The translations under genes were made by a program, and so were the position numbers. From positions 25,168-89,167 of the IMG/VR virus record IMGVR_UViG_3300043395_003089: a DNA stretch of 64,000 nucleotides; one strand, given 5' to 3'. This DNA comes from a virus. The stretch's first letter is position 1; every line of letters begins with the position of its first letter. Shown here one piece after another: positions 32,301-59,746 of the stretch. The notes below the pieces were generated by a model. It was not told the DNA's origin. It made no database searches and saw nothing but the letters and a program-made list of their open reading frames with translations.

Positions 32301-32310
32301 CGCTTAGCTC

Positions 32311-35918: not shown

Positions 35919-36476
35919 TTAGCGGCCCTTCTTTGCCGGCTTGCGGAACTTGGTGAACGCGATCAGGAGCGCGATGCCGCCGCCGATGCCGATGCCGGCT
36001 TGCTGCCACTGTGGGAGCTGAGTGAACCAGAGCCGCGTCTTCATCCACGTGCCGGCGCCAGGTGGCGCTTGGACGTTGAACGCGCCGCGGTCGGGCAACG
36101 TGCCACCGCTTGGGGGCCGCACGAGGCTGACCGTCGCCGCTGGTTGAAGGTCGACGCCGTCTGCTACTTTCGTCAGGAACGTGTTGAGCCCGACGTTGGC
36201 TTGCATGACCTTAGTGTGATCGAGCGCGCCGCTGTCGGTGATCAGCGACGTCAATAGGCTGCGCGCGGTCTCTTTGTCGTTCTGATCGACGCAGAGCTCG
36301 ACGCCACCATCGCCGTCGACGCAGCCATCGGTGCCGCCCACCCAACCGAGCGCCCGAAAGACGCCGTTGGACGTCTTGTCGCCCATGCCGCCATCGATCG
36401 CGAGCTGCGAGAAGCCGGCCTCGCTGGCGTATCGATTCAGCGTCGCTTGCAGCTTGGCCAGATTCTCGCTTGCCAT
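35919..36476 (-). CDS. membrane-anchored protein with peptidoglycan-binding-like N-terminus
   Basis: LQATLN...LAIDGGMGDKT; C-terminal TM + basic tail. Confidence 0.7.
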   Translation of the reverse strand: MASENLAKLQATLNRYASEAGFSQLAIDGGMGDKTSNGVFRALGWVGGTDGCVDGDGGVELCVDQNDKETARSLLTSLITDSGALDHTKVMQANVGLNTFLTKVADGVDLQPAATVSLVRPPSGGTLPDRGAFNVQAPPGAGTWMKTRLWFTQLPQWQQAGIGIGGGIALLIAFTKFRKPAKKGR

Positions 36477-36518
36477 GTTGCTTTGACCCTACCACAACAG
36501 CCGGGCTATCTTGCTTGT

Positions 36519-37370
36519 ATGTCAGCCCTACGCGGTAGCTCTACGGCCTGCTACCCGTATTTTCATGGTCAGTACGCGCCGCTCGCCGCCGGGCCGCAGA
36601 CGTACATTCGATCGGGATGCAGCGTCGGCAGTAACGGCAACGTCAACTGCGACCCCGAAGACATGCGCGCGAACGCCGAGCTGCAACTGGCACAACTCGG
36701 CTTCCCTCGCGAGCTGTCACTAGAGACCTACACGCTCGCGCGCTACATGCAGGGCGAGGTTGGTAGCGGCACCGTCGAGGAACGCGTCGCCGTCGGTGAA
36801 GCCGCCGTCAATCGCGCGAAGCGTGAACGCACGACGGTCAACGGGCTGTTGCTGTTTCGCCAGCCACAAGGCCACCCGAACCGCGGATGGTACGGGCCGA
36901 TCCATGGCGTCGGGACTGGCGTCTCGACGGCGCCGTACGGCCGATGGGCGACGACAAGCGCCGACCCGACACTCCTGACGTTGCTGCTCGCCGAGCTGGT
37001 GATGTCGGGCAAGAGCTACGATTTCTCGCGCGGCGCCGACGATCAAGATGGGCCCGAGGCCTGGATCGGCCAGGGCCAGGCGTCGCTCGATGGCTACGTG
37101 CGGCGGCTCGCGAGCTCGAACAAGTTCTGGGTCGGGCCGTTGCCCGGCGTCGACCACTGGCACACGTTCCTACAATTCACCGCGGGGCCGTTCGACGACA
37201 AGCAAGCGCTCTTGCAACGAGGTCTCGAAGCACTCAGCCTGCCGGCGCAGCGCCCGCAATGGCCGGCGGATCTGCCGCTCTGTAGCAAGCCCGCGGGCGG
37301 GGCGTTGCTATGGACCGTCGGCGTACTCGCGACGATCTTCGGTGGGTGGTGGGCTGCAAATCGAGCCTAG
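36519..37370 (+). CDS. SleB/Hydrolase_2-like cell-wall hydrolase with C-terminal TM
   Basis: YTLARYMQGE...ERVAVGEAAVNR resembles the SleB catalytic-Glu helix; TM at end. Confidence 0.7.
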   Translation: MSALRGSSTACYPYFHGQYAPLAAGPQTYIRSGCSVGSNGNVNCDPEDMRANAELQLAQLGFPRELSLETYTLARYMQGEVGSGTVEERVAVGEAAVNRAKRERTTVNGLLLFRQPQGHPNRGWYGPIHGVGTGVSTAPYGRWATTSADPTLLTLLLAELVMSGKSYDFSRGADDQDGPEAWIGQGQASLDGYVRRLASSNKFWVGPLPGVDHWHTFLQFTAGPFDDKQALLQRGLEALSLPAQRPQWPADLPLCSKPAGGALLWTVGVLATIFGGWWAANRA

Positions 37371-38620: not shown

Positions 38621-38974
38621 TTAGCGATTGGCCAGATGCGCCGACGCCAGGATCTCGTGGATTTGCTGGTCGTCTAGAGCGCCTTCGAGCTTCACCGGGC
38701 GCCGGTTGCGCGTCAGGAGTAGCGTCGTCGGTACGGCTTGGATCTCGTACTGATCGGCGAGCCCGACCACGCTCGGATCTTCGCTCGATGCATCGAGCAT
38801 GAGCACCGGGATCATGCGTGGCGGTACTTGGCCGCTCTCGAACCAGTACATCGGCACGCCGTGGCTGATCCACGCGTCGACCTGTCGCGCGAAGCGTGGC
38901 TTGTAGTCCTCGCATGCCTCGCAGCCCGGCATCGCGAAGACGATGATCATGCTCTTGACGTGGTCGAGGCTCAC
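38621..38974 (-). CDS. thioredoxin-family protein
   Basis: FAMPGCEACEDYKP, LADQYEIQAVPT (cis-Pro), EG. Confidence 0.88.
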   Translation of the reverse strand: MSLDHVKSMIIVFAMPGCEACEDYKPRFARQVDAWISHGVPMYWFESGQVPPRMIPVLMLDASSEDPSVVGLADQYEIQAVPTTLLLTRNRRPVKLEGALDDQQIHEILASAHLANR

Positions 38975-39108
38975 GACGACAGCCTAGCGCGCTGGTCTGC
39001 CACCGGGGCGCAGCACCCGAGTCATCTGGATGCCCACCCCGTAGATGTGCATCTGCCAGACGACGCCTGTACCCATCATCGTCGTCGGCATCGCGGTGTT
39101 GTTTCGTC

Positions 39109-39843
39109 TCACGACTCGCCTTGCTTGCGCCATGGCGCGAACGTCTCGCGCTCACGCAGCTTGAGCGGATCGTACTTCGGCGGCAGGATCGTCTTCGTCG
39201 CCACGTAGTAGCCACCGAACGCGACCACGAACCACGGCAGGTAGCCGAGGAACTTGAAGAACGAGCCGAGTAGATCGGGGATCTTCAGGACCGTTTGACC
39301 GACTTGCTTGACGACGTTTCCGACAGCCTTCGCGAAGCTGATCAGCGCCTCAGCCGCGCCCCCGAGAGCCTGTAGCGCACCGAGCAACGCTCCGGGCCGC
39401 GAGCACTCGACGAACGACGTCGCTAGCTTCGCGACGCGTGCCGACTTGAGCACGTTGACGATGAAGCGCTTGAGCCCCTGCGCCTCGATGATGTCAATGC
39501 CCTTACGCTCGGCTTCGAGTTGCGCCTCGATGAAGCGTCTGGGGTCGTAGAGCTCGTCGTTGATGTCCTCGTGAGCCTTGAACAGAATCTCGTGGTGTGA
39601 TGGTAGCTGAAGCTGCTTGGACGCTGCGCTGATCGCCTGTTGCGAGGCGACACGCAGATCTGTCACGAGCAAGTTGATCTGCTTGAGCTGCTCGACGGTG
39701 TAGAACCCCGTCGTCTTCCAATTGTCGATCACGTCATCGATGTTGGCGTCCCACGGACGCATCGAGACCGTGATGAATTCGCGGCACGTGTCTTCGAGCG
39801 AGAAACCCGAGATCGTCTTCACCAGATCATCGTAGAGGCTCAT
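39109..39843 (-). CDS. helical protein with C-terminal TM
   Basis: Start MSLYDD coupled to upstream gene; TM near end. Confidence 0.7.
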   Translation of the reverse strand: MSLYDDLVKTISGFSLEDTCREFITVSMRPWDANIDDVIDNWKTTGFYTVEQLKQINLLVTDLRVASQQAISAASKQLQLPSHHEILFKAHEDINDELYDPRRFIEAQLEAERKGIDIIEAQGLKRFIVNVLKSARVAKLATSFVECSRPGALLGALQALGGAAEALISFAKAVGNVVKQVGQTVLKIPDLLGSFFKFLGYLPWFVVAFGGYYVATKTILPPKYDPLKLRERETFAPWRKQGES

Positions 39844-40166
39844 AGACACGTCCCGTTGCGGCGCAGCTCGTTGAGCGCCGCCGAAAACTCGGGCAGCGTC
39901 GAGAGCCCAGTGGGGAACACCAGCTCGCACTTCATGCGCGCGGCTTCCTCGACGGTGATTCGCGGGCCGTCACCCGGATTCGGTTGGCCCTCGATCAAGA
40001 TCGCTTCGAGGAAACGCCGCGTCGGAATCTCGCCCGCGATCACCTTGGCGCGTAGCTCGTCGAGTCGCCGCTGGGCCTGATCCTTCAGCCACCAGCGGTA
40101 GAGCAGAAACGCCCCGACGAGCCCGCCGCCGATTCCGATTGCGTATTTCGCCTTTTTCGAGGCCAT
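39840..40166 (-). CDS. N-terminal TM protein
   Basis: GTGGTAGCGT 6 nt upstream; TM aa 8-25. Confidence 0.65.
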   Translation of the reverse strand: MASKKAKYAIGIGGGLVGAFLLYRWWLKDQAQRRLDELRAKVIAGEIPTRRFLEAILIEGQPNPGDGPRITVEEAARMKCELVFPTGLSTLPEFSAALNELRRNGTCL

Positions 40167-40190
40167 ACGCACACGCTACCACGAAGCCCG

Positions 40191-40550
40191 CTACGGCTTG
40201 GTGTCGATCGGTAGCGCCTCGGAGATCGCGAGCGAGACTTGCGCCCCGACACTGAGGCTGATCGCGTAGAGCCGCTGATCGGGTGCGAGCATGATGGTGA
40301 CCGAGCGCCCGGCTTGAAGCTGGAACGTCTCGCCGCCGGGCTCGTTGCTCTGTAGCGTCGCCGAATCGAGCGCGAGATACACCTCGGCTGCGAACGAGAC
40401 GTTGTCGATGACCACGCGTAACGGCTTTTTGCTCGCCGCGGTGAGCACCGTCGGAGCCGTTTTCTTGGTCTCGGCGGATAGCGTATCGCCAGCCGTACGA
40501 GTCAGCTGAAGCATACCGACGGAGATCGTGCTGAGGCGTGAATCCATCAT
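40191..40550 (-). CDS. small beta-rich structural protein
   Basis: Alternating hydrophobic strands. Confidence 0.6.
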   Translation of the reverse strand: MMDSRLSTISVGMLQLTRTAGDTLSAETKKTAPTVLTAASKKPLRVVIDNVSFAAEVYLALDSATLQSNEPGGETFQLQAGRSVTIMLAPDQRLYAISLSVGAQVSLAISEALPIDTKP

Positions 40551-40595
40551 GGCGGGCCTTCCTGGCAGAGCAGCGAGCTAGGGTGACGCGATGCC

Positions 40596-41093
40596 TTACC
40601 GGTTCTCGCTCGGCGGCGCGACCACACAGACGAAGCCCTGGAAGTCGATCGCGACTTTCAGTTGGTCGAGGTTCGAGATGACCGGAAACGTCAACGCGTC
40701 GAGCGTGATCTGGATCTGCTCGGCGCGGATGAGATACATCGGCTCGGCGAATTCCCACGTCCGCTCCGAGGAGCCCTTGCAGAGTAGCCCGAGCAGCGTT
40801 GGGTTCTTGGTCATGAGCTGCTCGCGGCCGAGATCGACGATCTTCGCGCGCACGAGCCCGAGGAGGAGCTCCTGGTCGGGTTGCGTGGGAAGGAGCACGC
40901 CCTCGCTGTCGAGCGCGTAGACACGAGGAATCATGCGATGGATCTCGAACGGCTTGTCCTGGCCGTTCTGGAACGTCGCGTCCGGGAATTGCTGCCCGGT
41001 TTCCGCCGACTCGATCAGAAACTCGCCCGAGATGGTGTAGGGCCAACGACTTTGGATGATCCGGTTGGCCCACGTAGCAGGAAGACGACCCAT
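40596..41093 (-). CDS. putative minor capsid (jelly-roll-like) protein
   Basis: Strong SD (AGGAGA); all-beta pattern; ends VAIDFQG. Confidence 0.55.
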   Translation of the reverse strand: MGRLPATWANRIIQSRWPYTISGEFLIESAETGQQFPDATFQNGQDKPFEIHRMIPRVYALDSEGVLLPTQPDQELLLGLVRAKIVDLGREQLMTKNPTLLGLLCKGSSERTWEFAEPMYLIRAEQIQITLDALTFPVISNLDQLKVAIDFQGFVCVVAPPSENR

Positions 41094-41209
41094 TTTGTTT
41101 CTCCTGATCGTCGTTTGAACTTGATGACGATCGCTTAGAGCCTATCGCAAATCAGGCACCTACACAAAGAGGCTGACATGCATGTACGTACGTACTACCA
41201 GGGGCTGAC

Positions 41210-41551
41210 ATGATGACGATTTCCGTCGAGAGCGTCTCGTTTTCCTGTCCGACGATCGCGCCCAAGCACTACATCGTGAAGGGGCCGTCAGGCTGGACTG
41301 AGACATTCGATCGCAAGACGCTCGACGACGAGCTCGCGCGGTTCATCAGCCCAGCCGAGCCGCGAGCGCTGGCCGATGTTTTCGTGACCCAACGGGCCGT
41401 TGCCGACAAGCCCGATCCGGTCAACTGGCACACGATCGTGGGCTTCCTGGGACGCGTCCTCGGGCACTCGCCGCGCGCTGTCCCGGCGACGGTGGGCATC
41501 GCGTTCTGGGCTCACGTCGAGCTGTTCAAGCGCGAGCAAGCGAGCAACTGA
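41210..41551 (+). CDS. hypothetical protein
   Basis: ORF inserted opposite to capsid operon. Confidence 0.55.
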   Translation: MMTISVESVSFSCPTIAPKHYIVKGPSGWTETFDRKTLDDELARFISPAEPRALADVFVTQRAVADKPDPVNWHTIVGFLGRVLGHSPRAVPATVGIAFWAHVELFKREQASN

Positions 41552-41553
41552 CG

Positions 41554-41787
41554 ATGATGACTAACCGCGAAGTCACGATCCTCTACACCAATCACCGCGG
41601 CGAGAAAGCCGATCGCCGGATCACACCGTTACACATCTGGTGGGGCTTCACGAAGCATCACCCGCAACCGCAGTGGCTCTTGCACGCGTACTGTCACGAA
41701 AAGCAGGCGCCGCGCGACTTCGCGCTACGCGACATCCACGAGTGGAGGCCCGAAACGACAACAGCCACCCCGAAGGATGGCCGTTGA
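41554..41787 (+). CDS. stand-alone WYL-like domain protein
   Basis: ILYTNHRGE..RRITP...WLLHAYCHEKQAPRDFAL.DI. Confidence 0.75.
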   Translation: MMTNREVTILYTNHRGEKADRRITPLHIWWGFTKHHPQPQWLLHAYCHEKQAPRDFALRDIHEWRPETTTATPKDGR

Positions 41788-41834
41788 CGTCTAGCTTTCC
41801 GTGAAGCCTAGAACGGCGCGCGTGCGCCGCCCGA

Positions 41835-42539
41835 TTAGACCACGTTGCGGCGGATCAGGCCGTACAGGTACGACTTGACATCCGCGAACGTCAGCGCCGT
41901 CGAGTTGTCCGACGCCGGCTGGTTGATCACCAGCGGGGCCTCGGGCGAGAACGACAGCTTGTACGCGAGGTTCTCGCGCAGCCAGATCGGCAGGACGAGC
42001 GCGTTGCGATCGCGCGGCGACGGGACGCCGTTCTGCGCGAGCTCGAACGAGCTGTTGGTCGAGAACACGTTGTAACCGTGTCCCTGCGGGTAGTCCTGCA
42101 TCACGCCATACGTGTACTTCTTGTCGTTGTACGTGAATTCGAGGTACGTCACGCGATCGACCGAGAACAGCGTCTGGAGCTGCGGCGGGTTCGAGAGCGC
42201 GCCCGAACCGTCGGCGAGCACGACCGCGCCGGCCGTGGTCGCGCGCATCACGCGGACCATCATGATGCCGATGCCGTAGATGTACATCTCCCACGACATC
42301 GGGAGACCGGTGTCACCCGAGCGGGGGACGTTGGTGTCGACGCGGGTCGCCGCGCGCGTACCACCGGGGATCGGCTGCGAGCGGCCCGAGACGAACGCCT
42401 CGACGGGCGACGTCTGGCCGTTCACGAGCTGAACGGTCGAATAGAGCTTGTCATCGATCCAGTCCTCGATCGAAACGGTCTGACCGTTCGGGAGGGTGAT
42501 CGTCGTGGTTCCTGGTGCAACGCCAACAGTGCCGGCCAT
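41835..42539 (-). CDS. putative major capsid protein (single jelly-roll-like, 234 aa)
   Basis: Strong SD AGGAGA; beta-rich, no TM; YSTV...F...DTN...GLP...IYGI...LPIWL...LYG pattern; fold assignment is inference. Confidence 0.6.
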   Translation of the reverse strand: MAGTVGVAPGTTTITLPNGQTVSIEDWIDDKLYSTVQLVNGQTSPVEAFVSGRSQPIPGGTRAATRVDTNVPRSGDTGLPMSWEMYIYGIGIMMVRVMRATTAGAVVLADGSGALSNPPQLQTLFSVDRVTYLEFTYNDKKYTYGVMQDYPQGHGYNVFSTNSSFELAQNGVPSPRDRNALVLPIWLRENLAYKLSFSPEAPLVINQPASDNSTALTFADVKSYLYGLIRRNVV

Positions 42540-42717
42540 GTCAATTCTCCTGCGAGTGTCACCGGCAAAACGGCCGGCACGTTGACGCCCGATGAGGGGT
42601 CGTCCCCTCGACGAGCACGGCACCAACACGGTGCCTTCGACGCCCTATGCCCCCGACGGGGCTTCCGTTCGGGGGCGACGTCGAGCGAGCTCGACGCTGG
42701 TGGGTGAGGCGAGTCGC

Positions 42718-43359
42718 TTAGCCGCGACCACCACCGAGCAGCGTTGCGCCGTACGCTGCGCTGAGGCCGTGCACCGCCGGGCCACCGATGCCGCGCAGGT
42801 GCGAGGCCTGCGGGCTCATCGGGCCGAGCAACGAGACGGGCGGCATGCTCGCGCCGGGCGAAGCGAGCTGGTTGCCGGCGACGCCCGGGATCGTGCCCGC
42901 GGGCGCCGTGCGCTCGGCGATCATCGGCACGCCGAGGCCGTTCAGGTCACGAGCCATCGGGATGCCGAGGCCGTTGAGCGCGTTGATCTGCGGGATGCCG
43001 AGACCGGCCGTGCCGCCCGCGGCGGGAACGACGGCCGCAGCTGGCGCCGTGATCGTGCCGAACAGGAGCCGTTCGAGCAGCGCGATACCCGAGGCGAACG
43101 CCGCACCGAGCGCTGCGCCGAGCGCCGCGTGACGCGTCGACTTCATCGCGTACATCACGCCCGCGGTTGCGAGACCGGCACCGAGGCCGATGCCCTCGGC
43201 GTACTTGACGCCCGAGCCGCTACCGCTGTGACGAGCGAGCATCGTCGAGGCGCCGGAGACGCCGCCACCAATGAGCGTGCCCCACAGCGGCGACAGGCCG
43301 GGATTCTGCCCGTAGGCGTTGAGGCCGAGCAGATCGACTTTTCCGAGGGAGCGCGACAT
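42718..43359 (-). CDS. Gly/Ala-rich membrane protein with tandem LNGLG motifs
   Basis: 2-3 hydrophobic helices; AGLGIP-LNGLGIP-LNGLGVP. Confidence 0.75.
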   Translation of the reverse strand: MSRSLGKVDLLGLNAYGQNPGLSPLWGTLIGGGVSGASTMLARHSGSGSGVKYAEGIGLGAGLATAGVMYAMKSTRHAALGAALGAAFASGIALLERLLFGTITAPAAAVVPAAGGTAGLGIPQINALNGLGIPMARDLNGLGVPMIAERTAPAGTIPGVAGNQLASPGASMPPVSLLGPMSPQASHLRGIGGPAVHGLSAAYGATLLGGGRG

Positions 43360-43395
43360 TGATGGATGACCTTTCTGGGAGTGAGGGACGAGGAA

Positions 43396-43575
43396 CTACT
43401 TGCGGCGAGGCGAGCATTCGCCCGGTTGGAAAATCCAGCCCGAGCGCGTGCGCTTGCCCTTGCCGACGAAACAGAGCTTCGCGGACTTCTTCGTCCGCGG
43501 GTTGTAGACGCACTTGCACTGACCCTCGGTAGGAGCACCGAGGCCAGGACCCGAGAGCGTCATGATCTTTGCCAT
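43396..43575 (-). CDS. 59-aa basic Cys-containing protein (not in ORF track)
   Basis: MAKIMTLSGPGLGAPTEGQCKCVYNPRTKKSAKLCFVGKGKRTRSGWIFQPGECSPRRK. Confidence 0.65.
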   Translation of the reverse strand: MAKIMTLSGPGLGAPTEGQCKCVYNPRTKKSAKLCFVGKGKRTRSGWIFQPGECSPRRK

Positions 43576-43596
43576 TGGATTTCCGCGAGAGGCTGA

Positions 43597-44052
43597 CTAG
43601 CCGGCGCGGTAGTAGGTGAAGTATCGGCGTGACGCGAGCGCGCGACCGGCCTGCGCGATCGGGCCGCGCACCTGCAACGCGTTCGAGTGCTGCGTCAGAT
43701 GGCGAAGCATCTGCATCTGCGCCTGCATCTGCGGCGCGACCTGCGAGGCTGTCACGGTCTCGGGGCCGGGCGAGCTCGACGCTGCGATGATCGCCGCCTT
43801 CTCGACGGCCTTCTCGACCTTGCGCATCGCGAAGCGAGCCTTGACGTTGGCCCACCATGTAGCGATCGGACCCGGAGCGCCCAAGCCCGCGAGCTGCGTC
43901 GCGAGCGGTCCGCCCGTGGTGAAGGCCTGCGCGACTGCCTGGACGTCGGCCTGTGGGTTGTACCCCACGAACGGCCGGATGATGCTGGAACGCATGACGC
44001 CGTCGGGGCGCATGACGTGTGCTTCGCCGCCGTGCCTGAAAATCGTCGCCAT
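43597..44052 (-). CDS. putative virion protein
   Basis: QLAGLGAP motif; TAGTTT 6 nt upstream. Confidence 0.7.
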   Translation of the reverse strand: MATIFRHGGEAHVMRPDGVMRSSIIRPFVGYNPQADVQAVAQAFTTGGPLATQLAGLGAPGPIATWWANVKARFAMRKVEKAVEKAAIIAASSSPGPETVTASQVAPQMQAQMQMLRHLTQHSNALQVRGPIAQAGRALASRRYFTYYRAG

Positions 44053-44205
44053 GCGGACAAACTACGCGAGGCGATCGCTATTCCGCAATGATCGTAGTAC
44101 GATAGGCTGACAGCGAGGAATCAAAGTCCATTCGATGATAGCTATGTGGTGGATCTCGGCGCGCTGGGGGCGGCGCGCAGGTGACCCACCAAGACCGCGA
44201 CCAAC

Positions 44206-44742
44206 GTGCTGATCGTCTCGCCTTCCACCGCAAACGCCATCACCCCACACGCGAGCGAGCGCGCGTTCGTGATGTTCGTGCAGGTCAATCCACCTGGTGG
44301 CGTTGGGCCGATCCTGATCGAAGGTACGAAAGGCGCCGCGCTCGGGCGACGACTAGGCCAGCTCGCGCGCGACAACGCTTTCGACGCACGTTTGATCGGG
44401 CTCTACGAGACGACGCAGCCCGAGCAGACGGCTTATCAGATCCGTTCGCAGCACGATGACGACCGCGTGCATGACGACTGGTTCGAGCCGACGACGGCGC
44501 TGCTCGCGTTCATTCAACAAGCCGCGCAGCAACCGTTGCAGGAGTTGCTCGCGCAGACGCATCCGGGCGCGATGGAGGCGACGCCCGTCGATATCGATGC
44601 GATCGCGAGCTTGCTCGGCGTATCCGTCAAGACGATTCGTCGCATGGTCGACAAGAACCAGATCCCATACCTACGCGCGGGTCGCGTGCTGCGCTTCGTG
44701 CCCGCCGATGTGATCGCGTCGCTGCAACACGGCCGTCGATAG
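44206..44742 (+). CDS. degenerate GIY-YIG/T5orf172-like domain fused to excisionase-type HTH
   Basis: RRLGQL...HDDWF; C-terminal IASLLGVSVKTIRRMV...IP..R.GR.LRF. Confidence 0.7.
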   Translation: MLIVSPSTANAITPHASERAFVMFVQVNPPGGVGPILIEGTKGAALGRRLGQLARDNAFDARLIGLYETTQPEQTAYQIRSQHDDDRVHDDWFEPTTALLAFIQQAAQQPLQELLAQTHPGAMEATPVDIDAIASLLGVSVKTIRRMVDKNQIPYLRAGRVLRFVPADVIASLQHGRR

Positions 44743-44776
44743 CTGGCAGACCAGCGCGCTAGGCTTGGTCTTGCCG

Positions 44777-45172
44777 ATGGAAATTCTCATGCCCAAGAAA
44801 ACGAAGTCGAAGCCCGTCGCCAAACGTGCCGGCAAGCTCAAGATCAAGACGCCTACCAGGCACGCGAAGCAACTCGGCGTGCGCGGCGTCAAGCGGCTGC
44901 TGATCGACACGATCGAAGGCATCGTGACCAACGTGCCACCCAAGGATCAACTCGAAGTCGCCGAGCACGTCTGCGACATCGGGATCGATCTGCTCGGGCT
45001 CGTGACCGGCGTCGACGCCGAGAACGCCGTCGTGGTGTTCCCCGATGACGGTGTCGCGCGACTGTTGTCGCTGATCCATGAACGCGAAGCGGCGACGCAG
45101 GTCCCGAGTGAGCAGATCATCGAGCGGCTGATCCAACAGCTCAACGATGAAGCTGCGGCGATGGCGAACTAG
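44777..45172 (+). CDS. hypothetical protein
   Basis: Follows class I motif. Confidence 0.65.
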   Translation: MEILMPKKTKSKPVAKRAGKLKIKTPTRHAKQLGVRGVKRLLIDTIEGIVTNVPPKDQLEVAEHVCDIGIDLLGLVTGVDAENAVVVFPDDGVARLLSLIHEREAATQVPSEQIIERLIQQLNDEAAAMAN

Positions 45173-45443
45173 TCATGCGTTCGATGCCAATGATCGTGGT
45201 CGGCGCGGTGCTCGCGCTGATCTTCGGCTGGATCACCGGCTCGTACTGGCTCGCGATGGCGCTCTACTACGTGTTCGCGCTCGGGCTCTTGCTCGGGCGC
45301 CGCTCGCTGCGCGCCGAGATCAAACCATGAAGCGCTTTCCTTCGATTGCGATGTTCCTCGCGTTCGCGTTGCCCTCGATGTTGATCGGCGCCGAGCGCGA
45401 GGCCAAGGCCGTAGCTGGCAGAGCAGCGAGCTAACGTCGTCGC

Positions 45444-46202
45444 ATGTCGATGACGCCTGAAGAATACAGAGTCGCCGCCCTTCGCACCGAGCACACGCCG
45501 AGGTTCATCAACCACGCGTGCCGCAACATCGAGGCGATCGATACGAACGCCGAGCAATATGATCGCGCTCGCAAGCATGATCAACGCCTGTCGCGCATGA
45601 TGCACGCCGTGCTCGGCATGATCACCGAGCTTGGCGAGCTATGCGATCCGCTCAAGAAACATCTGATCTATGGCGCGACGCTCGATACCAAGAATCTCGC
45701 CGAGGAGATCGGTGATCAGGCGTGGTACTCCAATTTGTTCATCGACGCTCTCGAAGTGAGGCTCGCGAGCATCTGGGAACGCAACATCGCCAAGCTACGC
45801 GCGCGATTCCCCGACAAGTTCACCGAGGAGAAAGCGCTCAACCGAGATCTCGACGCCGAGAAACGCGCGCTCGAAGGCAACGATCACCAGCAAGAGATTC
45901 GTGACCGCGCCGACTGGACGAACCTCGACGGCGACAAGACAAACAACACGCCGCGCGAGGAGTATCTGCCACTGCCGGCGGGTCGCGCGCTCGAAGCGAT
46001 CCGCGAGAGACTCGATCAGGACTTCGCGCCTACTAGCAAGTATCCAGATGCAATCGTCGCGGCCGTCGACAATCTCCTCAAAGGCTACGCCGATCGTGGG
46101 CGTATGCTCGACGAGCAAACCAAGGTCTCAACGGAGGCGCTCAAAGAGCTCAACGGGCTGCGTGCGAAGATCAAAAACTTCGCGCTCTCGAACGGCGCTT
46201 GA
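45444..46202 (+). CDS. MazG-like NTP pyrophosphohydrolase
   Basis: HAVLGMITELGELCD..KK...EEIGDQAWY...NIAKLRARFP. Confidence 0.88.
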   Translation: MSMTPEEYRVAALRTEHTPRFINHACRNIEAIDTNAEQYDRARKHDQRLSRMMHAVLGMITELGELCDPLKKHLIYGATLDTKNLAEEIGDQAWYSNLFIDALEVRLASIWERNIAKLRARFPDKFTEEKALNRDLDAEKRALEGNDHQQEIRDRADWTNLDGDKTNNTPREEYLPLPAGRALEAIRERLDQDFAPTSKYPDAIVAAVDNLLKGYADRGRMLDEQTKVSTEALKELNGLRAKIKNFALSNGA

Positions 46203-46203
46203 G

Positions 46204-46548
46204 CTACTTGCGTGAGAGCCAGAGCCCGGCGATCGCGGCGACACCCGCGAGCACAGCGCCACCGACGGTCAATCGTGTTGCCCAGACATCGCTGATTCCG
46301 AGCCCGCGAAACCCGAACCGGCGATTCGTACAGCACCACTCGTGGCCGCTGTCGCAGAAGCAGTCACGCACGCGAGCCGCACCGAGCCCAGCTTCAGGCG
46401 GCGGCGCGTAGTAGGGCCCGACAGGCTGCGGCGTCATTTGATCCATCCCGGGAGGAAAGGCCACGTGACGGTTGTATTTCGGATTCTGCGCCCACCCTTG
46501 GTTGTATTGCCAGGCAGGCACCATGCCGAGAGACTTGGCGAGAATCAT
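46204..46548 (-). CDS. membrane-anchored virion protein
   Basis: AGLGA and FRGLG motifs, CFCD...CC, C-terminal TM. Confidence 0.7.
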
Positions 46549-47192
46549 GTCAGTTCTTTCTTGAAGTTCAGTTGAGCAAACTCGCCGTGGTATTTCACGG
46601 CGGCTTCATCATACGCCCTAGCCGCCGCTTCCGCTGTAGCGAAGGAGCCTAACGAGATTCGCCGACCATCTGCCCTAATCGCCGCCCGCCAGCTATTGGG
46701 GCCGGTTTGATCCACGCCTCGAAATCCAACCCAGTGCTGACGGTTTTGCATGTTCTGCGCACGCGACGCGAACCGTAGGTTCGCTCGACGATTATCGAGC
46801 GTGTCTCGATTGCGATGATCGATCATCAAGCCATCTGGTGGTGCGCCAATGATCAAGTGGTGCAAGAACACCCAAGACTTCCGCCTGTGCTTGACGCCTG
46901 CGTAGCGCTCGCTATGCAACTGCCAAGACAATATTGAGACGTGCTCGAAGATGTCTTCATCTACGAGCGAAAACACATAGCCGCTCGTCGAGCGTATCGC
47001 CAACCAACGGGCACCTTCAGGCGCTTGCTGCGCGAGTGCTTTGAGCTGCTCAACAGCTCGACGCTCTACAAGAACCGTGTTGGTTCGTTGCTGAATGCGA
47101 CAGCGTTTCGAGCACGTCTTCGCCGGCTCGGCGCTACGCGTGCTGAATTCAGCTCCACAACAGGCGCAGCTTATCAGCACGAACAACGTCAC
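46545..47192 (-). CDS. HNH homing endonuclease with AP2 domain
   Basis: LHHLI...[17 protein letters not shown]; WRAAI...[17 protein letters not shown]. Confidence 0.9.
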
Positions 47193-47204
47193 GCTTTGAC
47201 AGTA

Positions 47205-47894
47205 TCATGCTGGCAAATCGACGGCCTTGAAGTCGACGCCCTTCACGTAGACGCCCTCTTTATCGAACGACCTGTTCCCGGGCAACGTAGTGTCCAGCGG
47301 CACAAATCTGCCGTTGATCATCCCGCCACAGAACACGTGACTCCAATCAGGATCCTTGCGCTGACGGACAACGCGTAGACGCGGCTCGATGCCGTTGAGC
47401 GCGAGCAGCGTCGCACCAAGGATTGCATGATCATCGCAGTCACCGCCGGAAAACTCCCAGGTGCGTTTGGCGCTCTGGTAGAGATCGATGCCCTCGACCT
47501 TGCCGTCGGGATGGCGGATCGGGCCGATGTCGCCCGTGTAGCGCACGCGATTCTTGATCGCGTGATAGATCGCCTCGGCTTCGCAGCGCTGATCGCGCTC
47601 GGGGCACTTGTTCGTGATCTGGAGCGCGAGCTTTCTCATCTCTGCGTTCTGGACTGACTTATGGACAAGGTCTTGGATCGTCGCGATGCGCTGCTCGATC
47701 GGCATCTGGTTCGACGCGCGCAGGATCGTCTTCATGCGGCCATCGGAGTAGGTGCCGACGACCGGCGCTTGCTTGAAGCGACCGAGGCCCATGAGCACGC
47801 GGTTCTGTCGCGTCGCCCAGATCCCGAGCGCCAAGATGCCTAGACCGGCGAGCCCAGAGGCGATGATAACTTTCTTGCGCTGCGTGAGCTTCAC
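47205..47894 (-). CDS. membrane-anchored transglutaminase-like cysteine protease
   Basis: N-terminal TM; GDCDD (Cys), WSHVF (His), PLDTT (Asp) triad. Confidence 0.85.
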   Translation of the reverse strand: MKLTQRKKVIIASGLAGLGILALGIWATRQNRVLMGLGRFKQAPVVGTYSDGRMKTILRASNQMPIEQRIATIQDLVHKSVQNAEMRKLALQITNKCPERDQRCEAEAIYHAIKNRVRYTGDIGPIRHPDGKVEGIDLYQSAKRTWEFSGGDCDDHAILGATLLALNGIEPRLRVVRQRKDPDWSHVFCGGMINGRFVPLDTTLPGNRSFDKEGVYVKGVDFKAVDLPA

Positions 47895-47928
47895 GCTCCA
47901 ACGCTACCACAGATGATTTGTTTCTAGC

Positions 47929-47938
47929 GTGATAGGCT
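47929..47938 (+). promoter_or_regulatory. class II motif exemplar GTGATAGGCT (extended -10, TGnTAnnnT)
   Basis: Same motif 6-10 nt before starts at 3951, 9488, 11774, 25437, 26705, 36476, 37410, 40166, 47894, 49254, 51444, 51971, 52188. Confidence 0.8.
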
Positions 47939-47945
47939 GACTGCC

Positions 47946-49226
47946 ATGCTGCTCGCGCGCGATGGCTTCGGAGGGCTCGGTGCTTTCGGGGCCAACTACG
48001 TCCCCAAGCCGTCGCATACACCGTATACGCCGCAACCAAGCGCGGGGGTGCCGTACACACCGCAGCCGTCGACTACCACGAAGCGGTACACGTACGCGGA
48101 GCTGCAAACGAAATACGCCGAGTTTTTGCAGGCGCAAACCGAGCAGCAACGCATCGAAGAATTCGGGCTCGCGTCGATGATCCCGACTTGCCCACCAACG
48201 GCGATGTCGAGCGCGACGGCTTGCTACAACGGCGCCGCGCCGAACCTCCTGACGCCCGGTACGTTCATCGCCTATGGTGTGCCGTTCAACGTCAGCGAAT
48301 TCAAGCCTGGCGACGGACGGAGCTTCAGCAAGACGGTCGTTGCGAATCCGATCCAGCGTGAAGTGATCGAGCGCGCGATTCGTACGCGCTCGGCGCAGGT
48401 CGTCAGCAAGTACATGAGCCAGCTGGCGATCTCCGGCTACCCGGATCCGGCGAATTTGTCGATCACGCAGCTCGCGAAGCTGGCCCCGGATTTCGCGACC
48501 AACATCCGCGGGCTCAAATACAACCCGATCCTCCCGAACGACGACGAGCTCAACAACACAGGCGGCTATCGCAAGTGGATCGCGCGCGGTGGGTTTCCTC
48601 TTAGCTCGGGCGTCGCGTACGGCACGATCTCGCTCGACGAGGCGTACTCGCCGGTCGTCTGCCAATCGATCTTGTGCCGTTGCCCGGTCGCGTCGACGCG
48701 GCCGATCGCATGTGTGCGCGCGTATATCACCAAGGACGGCGCGATCTCGCAACACCCGAGCTCCGATTTGGCGTCGTTCTGGGTGTTCCTCAAGATCGAG
48801 AACGACAACCAGATCACCGTCTCGCTCGATTACGTCGAGAAAACGAAGTTGCAGAAGTTCGGCAACGCGATGGCGAGTCTGCTCAACGCAATCGCCAAGA
48901 CGCTCTGTGTCGCAGCGCCCGCAGCGAAAGACCAAATGAACAAGTTGGCGTTGCCCAAATGCGTCGACAAGGCTAACAAGCCTTGCAAGCAAGGCGCTAC
49001 GGGATGCACGTGCGTGACGCCACCAGACAGCACGGCGATGGCCGTCGGTACGACCAACCTCGTGATGCAGAAGTGGTGCGAGGGTTGGGCTGCTGCGAAC
49101 GCTGCGCCGATCGATTACCCGATCGATAACATCATGCCACCCGTTCAGCCCAAGCCGTTTCCATGGGCTTGGCTCGTCGGTGGGCTCGCGGTATTCGGTG
49201 GCCTCGTGTACGCTTCGCGTAGATAG
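47946..49226 (+). CDS. Cys-rich virion protein with C-terminal TM
   Basis: GTGATAGGCT upstream; FGGLGAFG at N-terminus; TM + RR end. Confidence 0.75.
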   Translation: MLLARDGFGGLGAFGANYVPKPSHTPYTPQPSAGVPYTPQPSTTTKRYTYAELQTKYAEFLQAQTEQQRIEEFGLASMIPTCPPTAMSSATACYNGAAPNLLTPGTFIAYGVPFNVSEFKPGDGRSFSKTVVANPIQREVIERAIRTRSAQVVSKYMSQLAISGYPDPANLSITQLAKLAPDFATNIRGLKYNPILPNDDELNNTGGYRKWIARGGFPLSSGVAYGTISLDEAYSPVVCQSILCRCPVASTRPIACVRAYITKDGAISQHPSSDLASFWVFLKIENDNQITVSLDYVEKTKLQKFGNAMASLLNAIAKTLCVAAPAAKDQMNKLALPKCVDKANKPCKQGATGCTCVTPPDSTAMAVGTTNLVMQKWCEGWAAANAAPIDYPIDNIMPPVQPKPFPWAWLVGGLAVFGGLVYASRR

Positions 49227-49253
49227 CGATCTTCTGTGATAGGCTGACTGGCG

Positions 49254-49745
49254 ATGCTGCTCTCCACGCCAACAGCCCTTCCCGTCGAGCTCATGGGGCC
49301 GATGCTCCAAGGGCCCGCCGAGGTAAAGTCGCTCCAACAGGCGCTCAAGAATTTGAGCGTCGCGACGCAGCGACCGGACATCGATCCGGGGCCCATCGAT
49401 GGCAACGTCAACCCGCAAACGGTGCAGGCCGTCATCGCCGGGCAAACGCTGCTCTCGGCCGAGCTGCCCTCGTGGGCGTTCGTCGCGTTGCAGGCGGCGC
49501 TCGCCGCGGGCGCGATGACGAGCAAGGCCAAGGAAGCTGTTGCCGCAGCGGCTGTTCCGCTCACCGTCGCCGCGAACACGGCCGCGGTGAAGTTCAAGAC
49601 GGCCAATCCCACGATGATGCCGAGCAGCGTCGTCGGTTTCTTCGCACCAGGCTGGTACAAGACGCCACTCGGGATCGCGTTGATCCTCGGCGCGGCGTTC
49701 GTCGGCTGGAAGCTGTTCTTCACTCCCCCCACCAAGGCGGCATGA
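49254..49745 (+). CDS. membrane-anchored protein with peptidoglycan-binding-like domain
   Basis: VKSLQQAL...DPGPIDG...T; WYKTPLG anchor. Confidence 0.7.
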   Translation: MLLSTPTALPVELMGPMLQGPAEVKSLQQALKNLSVATQRPDIDPGPIDGNVNPQTVQAVIAGQTLLSAELPSWAFVALQAALAAGAMTSKAKEAVAAAAVPLTVAANTAAVKFKTANPTMMPSSVVGFFAPGWYKTPLGIALILGAAFVGWKLFFTPPTKAA

Positions 49746-49748
49746 GCC

Positions 49749-50045
49749 ATGTTTCAACTTCGAGGACTCTCGGCAGATGATCAGTGGTCGGAAGCGGCCT
49801 CTGGCGAAGTGGTCGACATGAACGCCGAGGCCGGCGGCGCCAAGATCGTCGAGTCGATCAAGAATTTCTTCACCAGCGCGCCGACCGTCGCCGCGGTGAT
49901 GACGCAACCGACGCCGACGACGCAGACGACGACCATGTTCGCGATCCCGCGCCCCTGGTACAAGACGCCGATCGGTATCCTCGCGATCATCGGTGGCGGC
50001 TTCGTCGGCTGGAAGTACGTACTCCCCAAGCTCCGTAAGAAATAA
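49749..50045 (+). CDS. small membrane-anchored virion protein
   Basis: MFQLRGL; WYKTPIG anchor. Confidence 0.7.
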   Translation: MFQLRGLSADDQWSEAASGEVVDMNAEAGGAKIVESIKNFFTSAPTVAAVMTQPTPTTQTTTMFAIPRPWYKTPIGILAIIGGGFVGWKYVLPKLRKK

Positions 50046-50054
50046 GGAGTCGTC

Positions 50055-50480
50055 ATGTTGCAGCTACGCGGCAGTGGGCTCGGTGAAGATTGGTCGACGA
50101 TGACGCCCGACGAGGCACCGACCGGCGAGGATCGCCCTGCGGCTGCGGTCTACTGCGGAAAGAAGTACGGCACGACGAGCCCATACTTCCAACCGTGCGT
50201 TGACTTCTACGCCGGCCCGCACATCGGCGAGTACGTTCCATCGAGTGCGTCACCTGGTACCAAGATCACCAAGTTGCCGCCGATCTTCGGTGGTGGTTCT
50301 CCGTCGACGTTCTTGAACCCGAGCTCGACGGCGACCAACAAGATCGGCTCGGGTGGCGTGCTTCCGCTGCCGTCGATCCCCGTGGTCTTTCCGGCCGGTG
50401 TGCCGTGGTACAAGACGCCGCTCGGCATCGGCGCGCTCGTACTCGGCGGGATCTTCGCGTATCGTCGACTCAAGCGCTAA
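50055..50480 (+). CDS. small membrane-anchored virion protein
   Basis: MLQLRGSGLG; WYKTPLG anchor; AGGAG SD. Confidence 0.72.
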   Translation: MLQLRGSGLGEDWSTMTPDEAPTGEDRPAAAVYCGKKYGTTSPYFQPCVDFYAGPHIGEYVPSSASPGTKITKLPPIFGGGSPSTFLNPSSTATNKIGSGGVLPLPSIPVVFPAGVPWYKTPLGIGALVLGGIFAYRRLKR

Positions 50481-50489
50481 GGAGCTTCG

Positions 50490-50804
50490 ATGTCGACCGC
50501 GGCTGACGCAGCACAAGGGTTCTTGAACGTTGTTGCAGACCCGTGCTTGCCGCAGGTCGGGCAGCTCCTGTTTCGCCTGCACGAGCTCGAAGCGACGCCC
50601 GACGATCCGACGCAGCCACCAAAGCCGGTGCAAGCCTCGCTCGGCATCGGGCTCTGCAAGGTCGTCACGCCGCTCAAGGCCGTCGTGTTCCTGCGCGAGA
50701 ACCCGGTGATCGGCGTCGCTGCGATCGCCGGTTTCTTCGGGATCTTCGTTGGCATCGGTTATCGCCTCGGGCATCGCTCGGGCCGTAGGAGCCTCAAGCC
50801 ATGA
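50490..50804 (+). CDS. small membrane protein
   Basis: AAGGAG SD; C-terminal TM. Confidence 0.68.
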   Translation: MSTAADAAQGFLNVVADPCLPQVGQLLFRLHELEATPDDPTQPPKPVQASLGIGLCKVVTPLKAVVFLRENPVIGVAAIAGFFGIFVGIGYRLGHRSGRRSLKP

Positions 50805-51058
50805 GTGCCGCGATTGTCAGGTTCACCAACAGCGTCGGCGTCGCGCCGGGCACGACGACGATGCAGCTCGGTCAGATCGGCGGCACCCGGCGCTGGGATA
50901 TGTACCAGGACATGATCGCGCTCAACGACGCGTCGATCCCGCCGCCGCCGCTTCAAGACCGGCCAATCCGTTGGGATATCGTCGCCATCATCGGCGGCGG
51001 GTCGCTGATTGTCGCGCTCGGCGCGGCGTTCCTCGCGGCTGCATTTGCCCGGCGATGA
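50801..51058 (+). CDS. small membrane protein
   Basis: ATGA coupling; C-terminal TM + RR. Confidence 0.68.
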   Translation: MSAAIVRFTNSVGVAPGTTTMQLGQIGGTRRWDMYQDMIALNDASIPPPPLQDRPIRWDIVAIIGGGSLIVALGAAFLAAAFARR

Positions 51059-51405
51059 AATTCGAACGGACATCCAATGGTGTCTCGTTCGCCTGTCCTG
51101 GCTGCGGCGATCGACATTACATCCCCGTCGAGGGAGATAGCGCCAAGTGGGTGTGGAACGGCTCACTCGACATGCCAACGCTTACGCCATCGATCGACGT
51201 CAAGAGCGGTCACTACGGCTCAACGTGGAAACAAGGTGACTCCTGTTGGTGTACGTACAATGCCGCGCATCCCGAGCGGCCAAGTAGCTTCACGTGCTAT
51301 CGCTGCCACTCGATCATTACCGACGGTAAAATCTCGTTCTGCACCGACAGTACCCATGCACTCGCCGGACAAGTCGTAGACCTGCCCGAGATCCCTGCGA
51401 GGTAG
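51055..51405 (+). CDS. DUF6527-like Cys/His protein
   Basis: CPGCG..H...W.WNGS...PTLTPSI...CHS.ITDG.I.FC.DSTH.LAG. Confidence 0.8.
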   Translation: MKFERTSNGVSFACPGCGDRHYIPVEGDSAKWVWNGSLDMPTLTPSIDVKSGHYGSTWKQGDSCWCTYNAAHPERPSSFTCYRCHSIITDGKISFCTDSTHALAGQVVDLPEIPAR

Positions 51406-51443
51406 GCTGTTCGCCCGACGATAGCTGTGATAGCCTCGCTGTC

Positions 51444-51668
51444 ATGGCAAAGCGCTGGACTCCTACCGCGAAGACTCTCGACAACGTGATCAAGCGCGTC
51501 AAAGTCGGTGACGCGATTTCGAATCCTGTGTGCGCCGCACGAACCGGCACTCACGCGAAGCGTTCGGCTGCGTATCAGCTCGCGGATCGCATCGATGCCA
51601 AGCTCGATGCGAAAGGGCTTCGCATCGACAACACGGCGCTCTGCATCGGCTACGTCGAGCGCAAGTAG
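51444..51668 (+). CDS. small basic protein
   Basis: GTGATAGCCT 7 nt upstream. Confidence 0.65.
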   Translation: MAKRWTPTAKTLDNVIKRVKVGDAISNPVCAARTGTHAKRSAAYQLADRIDAKLDAKGLRIDNTALCIGYVERK

Positions 51669-51952
51669 GTTGTGATAGCCTAGCGGCATGCTTCGCAGCG
51701 TGTTCGCACCCTACGGCAAGATCCCGGGCTCGCGTCGCGCCGGGCACGACGACGATGCAACTCGGTCAGATCGGCGGCACCCGGCGCTGGGATCTGTACC
51801 AGGACATGATCTCGCTCAACGACGCGTCGATCCCACCGCCGCCGCTTCAAGACCGGCCGATCCGTTGGGATATCGTCGCCATCATCGGTGGCGGGTCGCT
51901 GATCGTCGCGCTCGGCGCGGCCTTCCTCGCGGCTGCATTCGCCCGACGATAG
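51662..51952 (+). pseudogene. chimeric duplicate: 5' end of 52188 gene joined out of frame to a 3' copy of the 50801 gene
   Basis: 51662-51732 = 52162-52232; 51732-51950 nearly identical to 50838-51056. Confidence 0.85.
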
Positions 51953-51970
51953 CTGTGATAGCCTAGCGGC

Positions 51971-52168
51971 ATGGCGACGTTTCGCACGTATTACAACACT
52001 GGCTCCGTGCGCAAAGGAACCGACCGCGCGCAGACGACATTTCATCGCTCGAAGCGTGCAGCGATGAAGGAAGCTTGTAGGCTATCAAAGTTCACCAAGG
52101 GCTACGTGACCGTCGATCGAAACGGGATCGAAGTTGGCTCGTGCTTCAGGGGTAAGCCGGTCAAGTAG
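51971..52168 (+). CDS. small basic protein
   Basis: GTGATAGCCT 6 nt upstream; K/R-rich, 2 Cys. Confidence 0.65.
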   Translation: MATFRTYYNTGSVRKGTDRAQTTFHRSKRAAMKEACRLSKFTKGYVTVDRNGIEVGSCFRGKPVK

Positions 52169-52187
52169 GTTGTGATAGCCTAGCGGC

Positions 52188-52802
52188 ATGCTTCGCAGCG
52201 TGTTCGCACCCTACGGCAAGATCCCGGGCTCGTGGCCCACCGGCATCACACAGAGCCGTGGGCCCCGCGGCGAGTATTTGCAGCCGTACGATCCGCAGTA
52301 CAACACGCGTGATCAGGCCGGCTACTACCACGACACGCCGCTCGGCAGGCCGTCGCTGTTCCAGCGCTGGCGCCGTCGCCGCACGCTCAAGAAAGCGCTC
52401 GGCGCGATCCCGACCGATTTCGAGATGGCGTCGCTGTACAACTACACGCCGGTCGCAAGCGGCTGGATCTCGACCGAGCAAGGCTACCTGACGCCGCCGT
52501 GGCTACCACCGAACGGCTACAACCAGGGCGGCTACCCGGTGCCCGTGCAGCCCAACGACGGCGGCGGCAAGCCCGAGAGCTCGATGGCGCTGCGGTTCTA
52601 CACGCCCGAGCGCGCCCGCGATCCCAACTGGAACACGACGACGCTCGGCGACGGTGCGCCGGCCAGCGTCGAGGATGTCGTCGCGCAGATGAACGCGCAC
52701 AACGATCGCGTGTTCGCGCTCGCACTGGTGTCGACGACGGCGGTTGCCGTCTCGGCGATCATCACGGTGTTCCGCACGCTGCGGCTCATCCGCAAGGACT
52801 AA
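52188..52802 (+). CDS. membrane-anchored virion protein
   Basis: GTGATAGCCT upstream; C-terminal TM. Confidence 0.72.
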   Translation: MLRSVFAPYGKIPGSWPTGITQSRGPRGEYLQPYDPQYNTRDQAGYYHDTPLGRPSLFQRWRRRRTLKKALGAIPTDFEMASLYNYTPVASGWISTEQGYLTPPWLPPNGYNQGGYPVPVQPNDGGGKPESSMALRFYTPERARDPNWNTTTLGDGAPASVEDVVAQMNAHNDRVFALALVSTTAVAVSAIITVFRTLRLIRKD

Positions 52803-59528: not shown

Positions 59529-59746
59529 TGGCGGGCGCGCACAAGATCAACGTCGAGCTCGAAGTCGCCGATATCGAGCTGCTCGTCTCGGCGCTGCGGC
59601 TCGCCGGCTCAACGAGAACCCTCGGGCGCAGGCTCGGCGAGGCGATCGTGCCCAAGCTCATGCCGCAGCTCGCGCCGCCGACGCCAAAGGCCGACGAACG
59701 CGAGAAACTGTTGCTCGACAAGCTGCTCAACATCCTCGGGCACTAG
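59528..59746 (+). CDS. hypothetical protein
   Basis: TAGTG coupling. Confidence 0.55.
   Translation: MAGAHKINVELEVADIELLVSALRLAGSTRTLGRRLGEAIVPKLMPQLAPPTPKADEREKLLLDKLLNILGH

Follow-up and report, generated by a model that had tools for sequence, protein, structure and literature searches.

A conserved block of small genes as the probable particle module of an 89-kb bacterial virus with a predicted single jelly-roll shell protein

Of the known bacterial viruses with genomes of more than about 30 kb, nearly all are tailed phages with HK97 capsids, and tailless viruses that contain a membrane are regarded as limited to small genomes. Which kind of particle is encoded by the IMG/VR virus record IMGVR_UViG_3300043395_003089 (89,167 bp)? 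The window analysed here, 64,000 nucleotides corresponding to bases 25168–89167 of that record, contains a block of small genes at 39–53 kb around an open reading frame (ORF) for a 234-residue protein (41835–42539, minus strand; positions are those of the window unless stated otherwise). The original prediction, made from the sequence of this block, was of an unusually large member of one of the internal-membrane virus lineages, PRD1-like or P23-77/SH1-like. Our results support the large tailless membrane virus, but not its membership in either lineage (no packaging ATPase found, no sequence similarity, and a double jelly roll excluded for the 234-residue protein). We consider it likely that the block at 39–53 kb, together with the spike genes at 30–36 kb, is the particle module of a complete temperate bacterial virus of about 89 kb that is not a tailed phage.

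The 234-residue protein is the candidate major capsid protein. Its ORF starts with an ATG at 42539, with AGGAG 7 nt upstream, which confirms the strong Shine-Dalgarno site that had been read from the sequence; most of the surrounding genes, in contrast, are leaderless. The protein has 460 homologues at E ≤ 1e-3, on contigs that reach 221 kb, and the best 120 of these share 69–100% identity, measure 234–241 residues, lie on contigs of up to 179 kb, and include none that is named. A search of 1.8 billion cluster representatives revealed 126 further relatives, down to 25% identity. Conservation in the block was counted over 17 related IMG/VR loci, and the 234-residue protein is the most conserved of the block, present in all 17 with 54–87% identity, against 23–67% for its neighbours. 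Compared with the DNA polymerase, it is better conserved in the closer relative (G003) and about equally conserved in a second one (G002). This conservation, the constant length and the gene's own Shine-Dalgarno site suggest the behaviour of a capsid protein.

Known viruses gave no sequence relatives. Neither megablast with the block nor tblastn with the 234-residue protein returned a single match among 50,697 GenBank phages, and the protein has no relative in Pfam or PHROG. Sequence searches of the PDB, both with the single protein and with profiles, gave nothing meaningful, and nor did PHROGs run over all 76 members of the capsid alignment. In particular, these sequence searches detected no similarity to the capsid proteins of SPV1 or of SH1/P23-77/PRD1-like viruses.

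The fold was modelled with AlphaFold2. A first model, obtained from a shallow alignment, was discarded (predicted local distance difference test score, pLDDT, 56.8). The model calculated from a 76-sequence alignment of distant relatives has a pLDDT of 88.6 and a predicted template modelling score of 0.81, and consists of an eight-strand sandwich with one helix, i.e., a single jelly roll, in agreement with the beta-rich character expected from the sequence. As modelled, both an HK97 fold and a double jelly roll are excluded for this protein. VIA-align, a search independent of Foldseek, placed SPV1 (PDB 6OJ0; VP4, VP10) at the top of 48,161 representative chains (Z 8.0, root mean square deviation (rmsd) 3.2, 138 residues), followed by HHIV-2 (7.1) and HCIV-1 (7.0), with P23-77 VP17 seventh at 6.0. 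Re-alignment of the top 996 Foldseek chains gave SPV1 (Z 8.2, 140 residues, rmsd 3.4), HHIV-2 (7.4), SH1 (6.8) and P23-77 (6.6), all four of which are shell proteins of internal-membrane double-stranded DNA viruses. The model and these matches suggest that the 234-residue protein forms the shell of the particle.

Portal, terminase, HK97-type capsid and tape-measure genes had not been recognised in the window, and this holds for the whole genome. A scan of every ORF of at least 300 residues against Pfam or PHROGs (most with both) revealed none of these genes, and no packaging ATPase. Nine Pfam models (Terminase_6N, TerL_ATPase, Terminase_6C, Phage_portal, SPP1_portal, Phage_capsid, PhageMin_Tail, FtsK_SpoIIIE and Pox_A32) had no match at E ≤ 0.1 in five genomes, the record and four relatives, while control genomes were matched. 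As to a tail module, PhageMin_Tail was negative and the only PHROG tail families matched were spike domains, tube and baseplate models not having been run individually. The FtsK/A32-type ATPase for which the original prediction had looked to the rest of the contig was found neither there nor in the relatives.

The 25 kb of the record that lie outside the window are a replication module, devoid of terminase, portal or tail genes. Inteins interrupt its SNF2 helicase and its family-A polymerase, the latter fused to a UDG domain. Further genes of the module code for a PD-(D/E)XK nuclease, a UvrD helicase, a dCMP deaminase, a DUF669 protein and a protein similar to Sak4. PHROG "terminase" matches on upstream proteins of 879 and 869 residues were rejected, since they cover the inteins only. 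Scanning all six frames for Walker A motifs, we found them in real coding frames only in Sak4, UvrD and an intein-split P-loop protein, the 879-residue one, in which an intein lies inside the Walker A motif (GVMGAGK|C...HN|TS). Intein-free homologues of about 525 residues are conserved across the virus family; their nearest named relatives are DUF5906/VapE-type NTPase clusters, and a profile search gave weak matches to RFC P-loops. We dropped this protein as a packaging ATPase because of its DUF5906/VapE-like kin and its place in the replication module, and read it as a putative replicative NTPase. A further motif, GRDISGKT in a 279-residue protein, was rejected as a P-loop because it falls in an AP2-like segment. 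The replication genes with inteins lie at record positions 6220–8859, 9519–12128 and 17920–22788 (one intein in the P-loop protein, one in the SNF2 helicase, and at least one in the UDG-PolA fusion), all upstream of the window, and the virus family includes alleles of the P-loop protein both with and without the intein.

IMG/VR grades the record as linear, with a CheckV completeness of 86%. Record bases 1–370 and 88795–89167 (window 63628–64000) are 92.8% identical with small indels, in an overlap that reaches both ends, and the order of genes over the junction of the record's ends is colinear with an unbroken stretch of G003. The assembly has probably wrapped round a circular or terminally redundant genome in a mixed population, and the record of about 89 kb is probably a complete genome. 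If so, hallmark genes elsewhere on the contig cannot rescue a tailed-phage reading. The genome encodes 18 proteins of at least 300 residues, seven of them for replication. Spurious frames are abundant in the ORF lists because the G+C content of the window is about 62%, and genes were therefore called from third-position G+C and then checked for conservation.

The same gene set recurs in relatives. Three were fetched whole: G003 (137,914 bp) and G004 (129,359 bp), both with direct terminal repeats, and G002 (221,422 bp), with a completeness rating of 100%. The core common to the four genomes (89–221 kb) comprises a replication set and a non-replication set. The latter consists of the 59-, 213-, 234-, 165- and 119-residue genes, a thioredoxin-like protein, a transglutaminase-like protease, a 721-residue coiled-coil protein, a 209-residue Cys-rich protein, a 118-residue three-pass membrane protein and a 201-residue protein. 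The 721-residue protein, of low complexity, is the only one above 250 residues, and this set therefore offers no portal, terminase or HK97 capsid candidate. Large proteins common to only the three bigger genomes are VWA-domain proteins.

An integrated relative was found by a profile scan of 301 Polyangiales genomes, which gave six matches, one of them on a 10.3-Mb contig. The ORF on that contig (L061:6998–7696) is distantly related to the capsid family (hhalign 97%, E 9e-11, 194 columns), and about 5 kb from it a protease homologue is encoded. Both belong to an island with a G+C content of 0.65–0.67, against 0.73, whose left end is a tRNA-Phe gene (640,366–640,439) with an integrase at 640,620, and at whose right end, at 725,514, at least 45 nt of the tRNA 3' end are repeated exactly. 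This att-bounded provirus of a distant relative spans about 85 kb (G052:C1:640366–725558, loci L060–L064). It indicates a temperate lifestyle and, for at least one relative, a host among the myxobacteria, and gives an independent estimate of genome size. The whole host genome had no match to Terminase_6N, Phage_portal or Phage_capsid; the host FtsK is encoded 8 Mb away from the provirus, and none lies within it. A 165-residue ORF beside the provirus capsid homologue does not match the 165-residue family of the block, and the equal size was not used as evidence. Contigs of the virus family are also binned in metagenome-assembled genomes (MAGs) of three phyla, Actinomycetes, Polyangiales and Gemmatimonadota (L022, L023 and L024), the Gemmatimonadota "chromosome" being scaffolded with N gaps and carrying viral genes 1.46 Mb apart. 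We rejected host assignment from these bins, given the three phyla and the short or scaffolded contigs.

The genes next to the capsid candidate fit a shell of several small proteins. The 165- and 119-residue ORFs that had been singled out with it are conserved (14 and 10 of the 17 loci), and the order 234/165/119 is fixed among related loci; each of the three relatives fetched whole has the 119-residue gene, in every case behind the 165-residue one. The 165-residue protein has 299 homologues of about the same length and no match in Pfam, PHROG or PDB sequences, although a feature-based Atlas search gave a weak lead to PM2 coat-protein domains (score 0.75). No kinship between the 165- and 234-residue families could be detected with hhalign, and the 119-residue protein matches no family. 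These two proteins may be second-shell or vertex parts.

The abundance of single-pass membrane proteins with basic tails that had been noted in the block was also confirmed. By hydropathy, 27 of the 146 genes called have a predicted single transmembrane (TM) segment, and about ten further clear C-terminal anchors are visible in the translations. The single-pass proteins cluster at 35.9–54.2 kb, most with a C-terminal anchor followed by a Lys/Arg tail, and about 20 such tail-anchored proteins cluster around the capsid gene. This gene content suggests a possible internal membrane. In addition, very basic small proteins are encoded at 3381–4954, 37561–37821 and 43396–43575 (22–34% Lys+Arg, one ending in seven arginines), and are candidates for condensing DNA.

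From these elements we propose the following particle. The 234-residue single jelly-roll protein would form the outer shell, over a lipid layer bearing about 20 small tail-anchored proteins, with the 165- and 119-residue proteins as the second shell or vertex component. Pectate-lyase-type spikes at the vertices would bind host polysaccharide; the two spike proteins match Pfam Pect-lyase_RHGA_epim (E 2e-16 and 3e-13). The membrane-anchored transglutaminase-like protease and the thioredoxin-like protein would process virion proteins. The DNA may be enclosed without a terminase or an FtsK-type motor, being probably condensed by the small basic proteins as in SPV1; we infer this motor-less packaging from the negative searches described above.

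Several points weigh against this proposal. Best scores of Z 7–8 are typical for any model in this structure search, unrelated jelly rolls follow at Z of about 6, and Foldseek of the 234-residue model against the PDB and a viral library gave weak jelly-roll matches and nothing at E ≤ 1e-3. The fold model covers the 234-residue protein, while the 165- and 119-residue proteins are known from sequence; likewise, the absence of hallmark genes rests on sequence models, with one protein of the genome folded. The overlap of the record's ends is inexact, at 92.8% identity. The genome encodes no lipid-related enzyme, and the virus is known from its genes. To our knowledge, there is no precedent for a particle of 89–221 kb without a packaging motor.

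Jelly rolls are also known in phage cement proteins and fibre tips, which leads to the alternative of a very divergent tailed phage, whose HK97 capsid, portal and terminase would escape all sequence models and whose 234-residue protein would be a cement or decoration protein or the head of a fibre. Such proteins are among the weaker structural matches (KHP40 cement, Z 5.7; phage 7-7-1 fibre, Z 5.7; lambda gpJ), the spikes match PHROG tail-spike families, and Atlas clusters of neighbouring proteins are automatically labelled Uroviricota. Yet cement proteins and fibre tips are normally variable, and the 234-residue protein is the most conserved of its block. The nine hallmark models are negative in five genomes, two of them with direct terminal repeats, the four-genome core has no non-replication candidate above 250 residues save the low-complexity 721-residue protein, and the 18 proteins of at least 300 residues, with seven taken up by replication, leave no room for a tail module. 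We regard a tailed phage as quite improbable.

The failure to find a packaging motor of either kind would also suit a non-icosahedral, enveloped or pleomorphic virus, in which the membrane wraps the DNA and the jelly-roll protein is a component of the envelope, matrix or nucleocapsid. The unusually many membrane proteins and the cluster of small, very basic proteins point the same way. Such a particle is nevertheless unlikely, given that the best structural matches are icosahedral shell proteins, that the conserved, fixed-order trio of small proteins recalls the sets of major, second and vertex proteins found in jelly-roll viruses, and that vertex-type spikes are present. It is very hard to believe that the element is no virus at all and instead an integrative, plasmid-like element whose membrane and jelly-roll proteins serve at the cell surface. 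A tyrosine integrase, replication genes of its own and the binning of relatives in MAGs of three phyla are what might be expected of such an element, but spike proteins and a peptidoglycan-binding domain of endolysin type are encoded as well, neither an FtsK-type nor a conjugative coupling ATPase was found, relatives have terminal repeats, and near-identical DNA occurs in unrelated freshwater and activated-sludge studies. None of the sequencing runs listed holds RNA.

For the tailless particle with a jelly-roll shell, the closest analogue appears to be SPV1 (Portogloboviridae), the best structural match of the 234-residue protein in both searches, although with Z, residue and rmsd values (8.0–8.2, 138–140 and 3.2–3.4) in a range common for any model. 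The genome of SPV1 is circular, of about 20 kb, and we know of no recognised packaging ATPase in it; here, too, none was found by the models and the Walker A scan. The two differ in that the host of SPV1 is an archaeon, whereas the present family has bacterial hosts, genomes of 85–221 kb and its own replisome. In SPV1, hexamers of the single jelly-roll protein VP4 and pentamers of VP10 cover an internal membrane; subcapsomer and membrane proteins are numerous, the DNA is condensed by protein into a core, and no polymerase is encoded (PMC8459092).

The Sphaerolipoviridae, Simuloviridae and Matshushitaviridae (SH1, HHIV-2, HCIV-1 and P23-77) take ranks 2–4 in the structure search with Z of 7.4–6.6. 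The host of P23-77, Thermus, is a bacterium. Viruses of this type are tailless, with an internal membrane, two adjacent small jelly-roll capsid genes and vertex spikes (PMC12643093, PMC12642351), and have an FtsK/HerA-type packaging ATPase beside the capsid genes (PMC8328091). The single jelly roll of their major capsid protein is shared by the 234-residue model, with modest scores. Their genomes are of 16–30 kb, against 85–221 kb here, and no FtsK/HerA-type ATPase was found here: FtsK_SpoIIIE and Pox_A32 were negative in the five genomes, and the Walker A scan of the record hit replication proteins only. PRD1-like and PM2-like viruses (Tectiviridae, Corticoviridae) infect bacteria, lack a tail, and combine an internal membrane and vertex spikes with numerous small membrane proteins, an inventory similar to that predicted here from the genes. 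Their capsid protein is a double jelly roll, in contrast with the one eight-strand sandwich of the 234-residue model, the genomes here are 6–20 times larger, and no A32-type ATPase was found. With the hallmark ATPase missing and one barrel in place of two, we do not place the virus in the SH1/P23-77 or the PRD1 lineage.

A jelly-roll shell over a protein-studded membrane is known only from viruses several times smaller, and we found no description of the present virus group in the literature. We tentatively suggest, at somewhat under an even chance, that it is a widespread, undescribed lineage of high rank, made up of temperate bacterial viruses of 85–221 kb, some with myxobacterial hosts, with a membrane-lined icosahedral single jelly-roll shell and no terminase or FtsK-type motor, and independent of the known jelly-roll realms. 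If true, an environmental family of this size with hundreds of capsid variants would break the rule that ties large genomes to tailed phages, and would raise the known genome-size ceiling of the jelly-roll membrane architecture about four- to ten-fold. Such a family would be invisible to virus classifiers that rely on hallmark genes. It also raises the question of how a particle could take in about 100 kb of DNA with no motor, which the att-bounded Polyangiales provirus makes open to experiment.

The features of the particle module and its surroundings are collected in Table 1.

Table 1 Candidate virion genes and conserved neighbours in the window
Feature	Position	Strand	Basis
Spike proteins of pectate-lyase type (two, 572 and 594 aa) and a 431-aa fibre protein with repeats	30582..35387	-	Pfam, PHROG, repeats in the translation
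307-aa conserved protein with C-terminal anchor	36447..37370	+	39–56% identity in relatives, up to 68% in MAG contig L022
117-aa thioredoxin-like protein with CxxC motif	38621..38974	-	10/17 loci, and G002–G004
119-aa protein, candidate vertex or minor shell protein	40191..40550	-	10/17 loci
165-aa protein, candidate second capsid or vertex protein	40596..41093	-	14/17 loci, just downstream of the 234-aa gene
234-aa single jelly-roll protein, candidate major capsid protein	41835..42539	-	Shine-Dalgarno site, homologues, AlphaFold2 fold, conservation
213-aa Gly/Ala-rich membrane protein, directly upstream of the 234-aa gene	42718..43359	-	Same position in 16/17 loci; hydrophobic segment
59-aa basic, Cys-bearing conserved protein	43396..43575	-	In G002, G003 and G004; Lys+Arg 22%
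151-aa conserved protein	43597..44052	-	11/17 loci; TAGTTT box 7 nt before ATG
229-aa transglutaminase-like (papain-fold) cysteine protease candidate with N-terminal membrane anchor	47205..47894	-	Pfam Transglut_core
Run of C-terminally anchored small membrane proteins (426, 163, 98, 141, 104 and 85 aa)	47946..51058	+	Translations, hydropathy, promoter boxes at 47929 and 49236
204-aa C-terminally anchored protein	52188..52802	+	10/17 loci; TM 175–193, tail RLIRKD; promoter box at 52172
721-aa coiled-coil, low-complexity core protein	56762..58927	-	Conserved in G002, G003 and G004; no family match

The 151-residue gene is probably the first of the capsid operon, within which Shine-Dalgarno sites are used internally. 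The 213-residue protein has no family match, and the 307-residue protein none in Pfam or PHROG. The protease candidate passes the Pfam Transglut_core cut-off narrowly (E 4.6e-5, 24.1 bits against a cut-off of 23), and is present in all 17 loci with 41–56% identity. The 117-residue protein matches Pfam Thioredoxin_2 and Thioredoxin, both below their cut-offs, and a 959-residue protein has a sub-threshold match to GDSL/SGNH-hydrolase models. For the 721-residue protein, a role as scaffold or ruler is a guess. Its homologues measure 721, 711, 736 and 940 residues in genomes of 89, 138, 129 and 221 kb, respectively; the longest one in the largest genome would fit a scaffold or size ruler, a weak trend over four genomes.

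Two further observations concern the capsid candidate. A 49-residue ORF at 38984–39133 (minus strand) resembles its residues 66–104 or thereabouts (W-x-M-x-I-Y-G-x-G-I), and is probably the remnant of a second capsid paralogue; a full paralogue of 248 residues is retained in G004. The peptide VGVAPGTTT at its N-terminus (42513–42539, minus strand) is repeated near the N-terminus of the 85-residue anchored protein (50834–50860, plus strand), and could be a docking arm common to the two proteins.

Peptide motifs also recur among the membrane proteins. PWYKTP(L/I)GI precedes the anchor in three proteins of the run of small membrane proteins. ML(Q)LRG-GLG-like N-terminal peptides are found in several membrane or virion candidates (3045–3377, 11250–11774, 47946–49226, 49749–50045, 50055–50480 and 6609–9488), and LFGL(R)G punctuates the 959-residue protein. 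These peptides are possible processing sites of the membrane-anchored protease, as predicted from sequence.

Many of these genes share an upstream motif, GTGRTAGSNT, which occurs in 16 copies against 0.54 expected (3935, 9496, 11781, 25444, 26712, 30559, 36486, 37390, 40173, 47901, 47929, 49236, 51427, 51672, 51955 and 52172). All copies end shortly before a start codon that lacks a Shine-Dalgarno site, 15 at 6–8 nt and one (37390) at 10 nt. The motif precedes the 959-residue gene, the spike operon, the protease gene and most of the genes for anchored membrane proteins. It looks like an extended -10 box that would drive leaderless mRNAs, and the membrane, spike, fibre and protease genes that it heads may form one co-regulated set, presumably late. 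A second motif, CAGCG(C/A)GCTAGG, often after CTGGCAG, lies upstream of seven start codons of mostly non-structural genes (2014–2038, 9791–9815, 24796–24820, 38975–38994, 44745–44764, 45424–45443 and 59743–59767), which suggests two promoter classes.

The right part of the block has undergone recent local duplication, with 95% identity over 219 bp between 50838–51056 and 51732–51950, and 100% over 71 bp between 51662–51732 and 52162–52232. The duplications create a mosaic 92-residue ORF (51688–51966), which begins like the 204-residue protein and continues, in another frame, into a copy of the 85-residue gene. Besides the intein endonucleases, HNH- and AP2-type homing-endonuclease-like genes are present at 46545–47192, 61978–62817 and 63120–63782.

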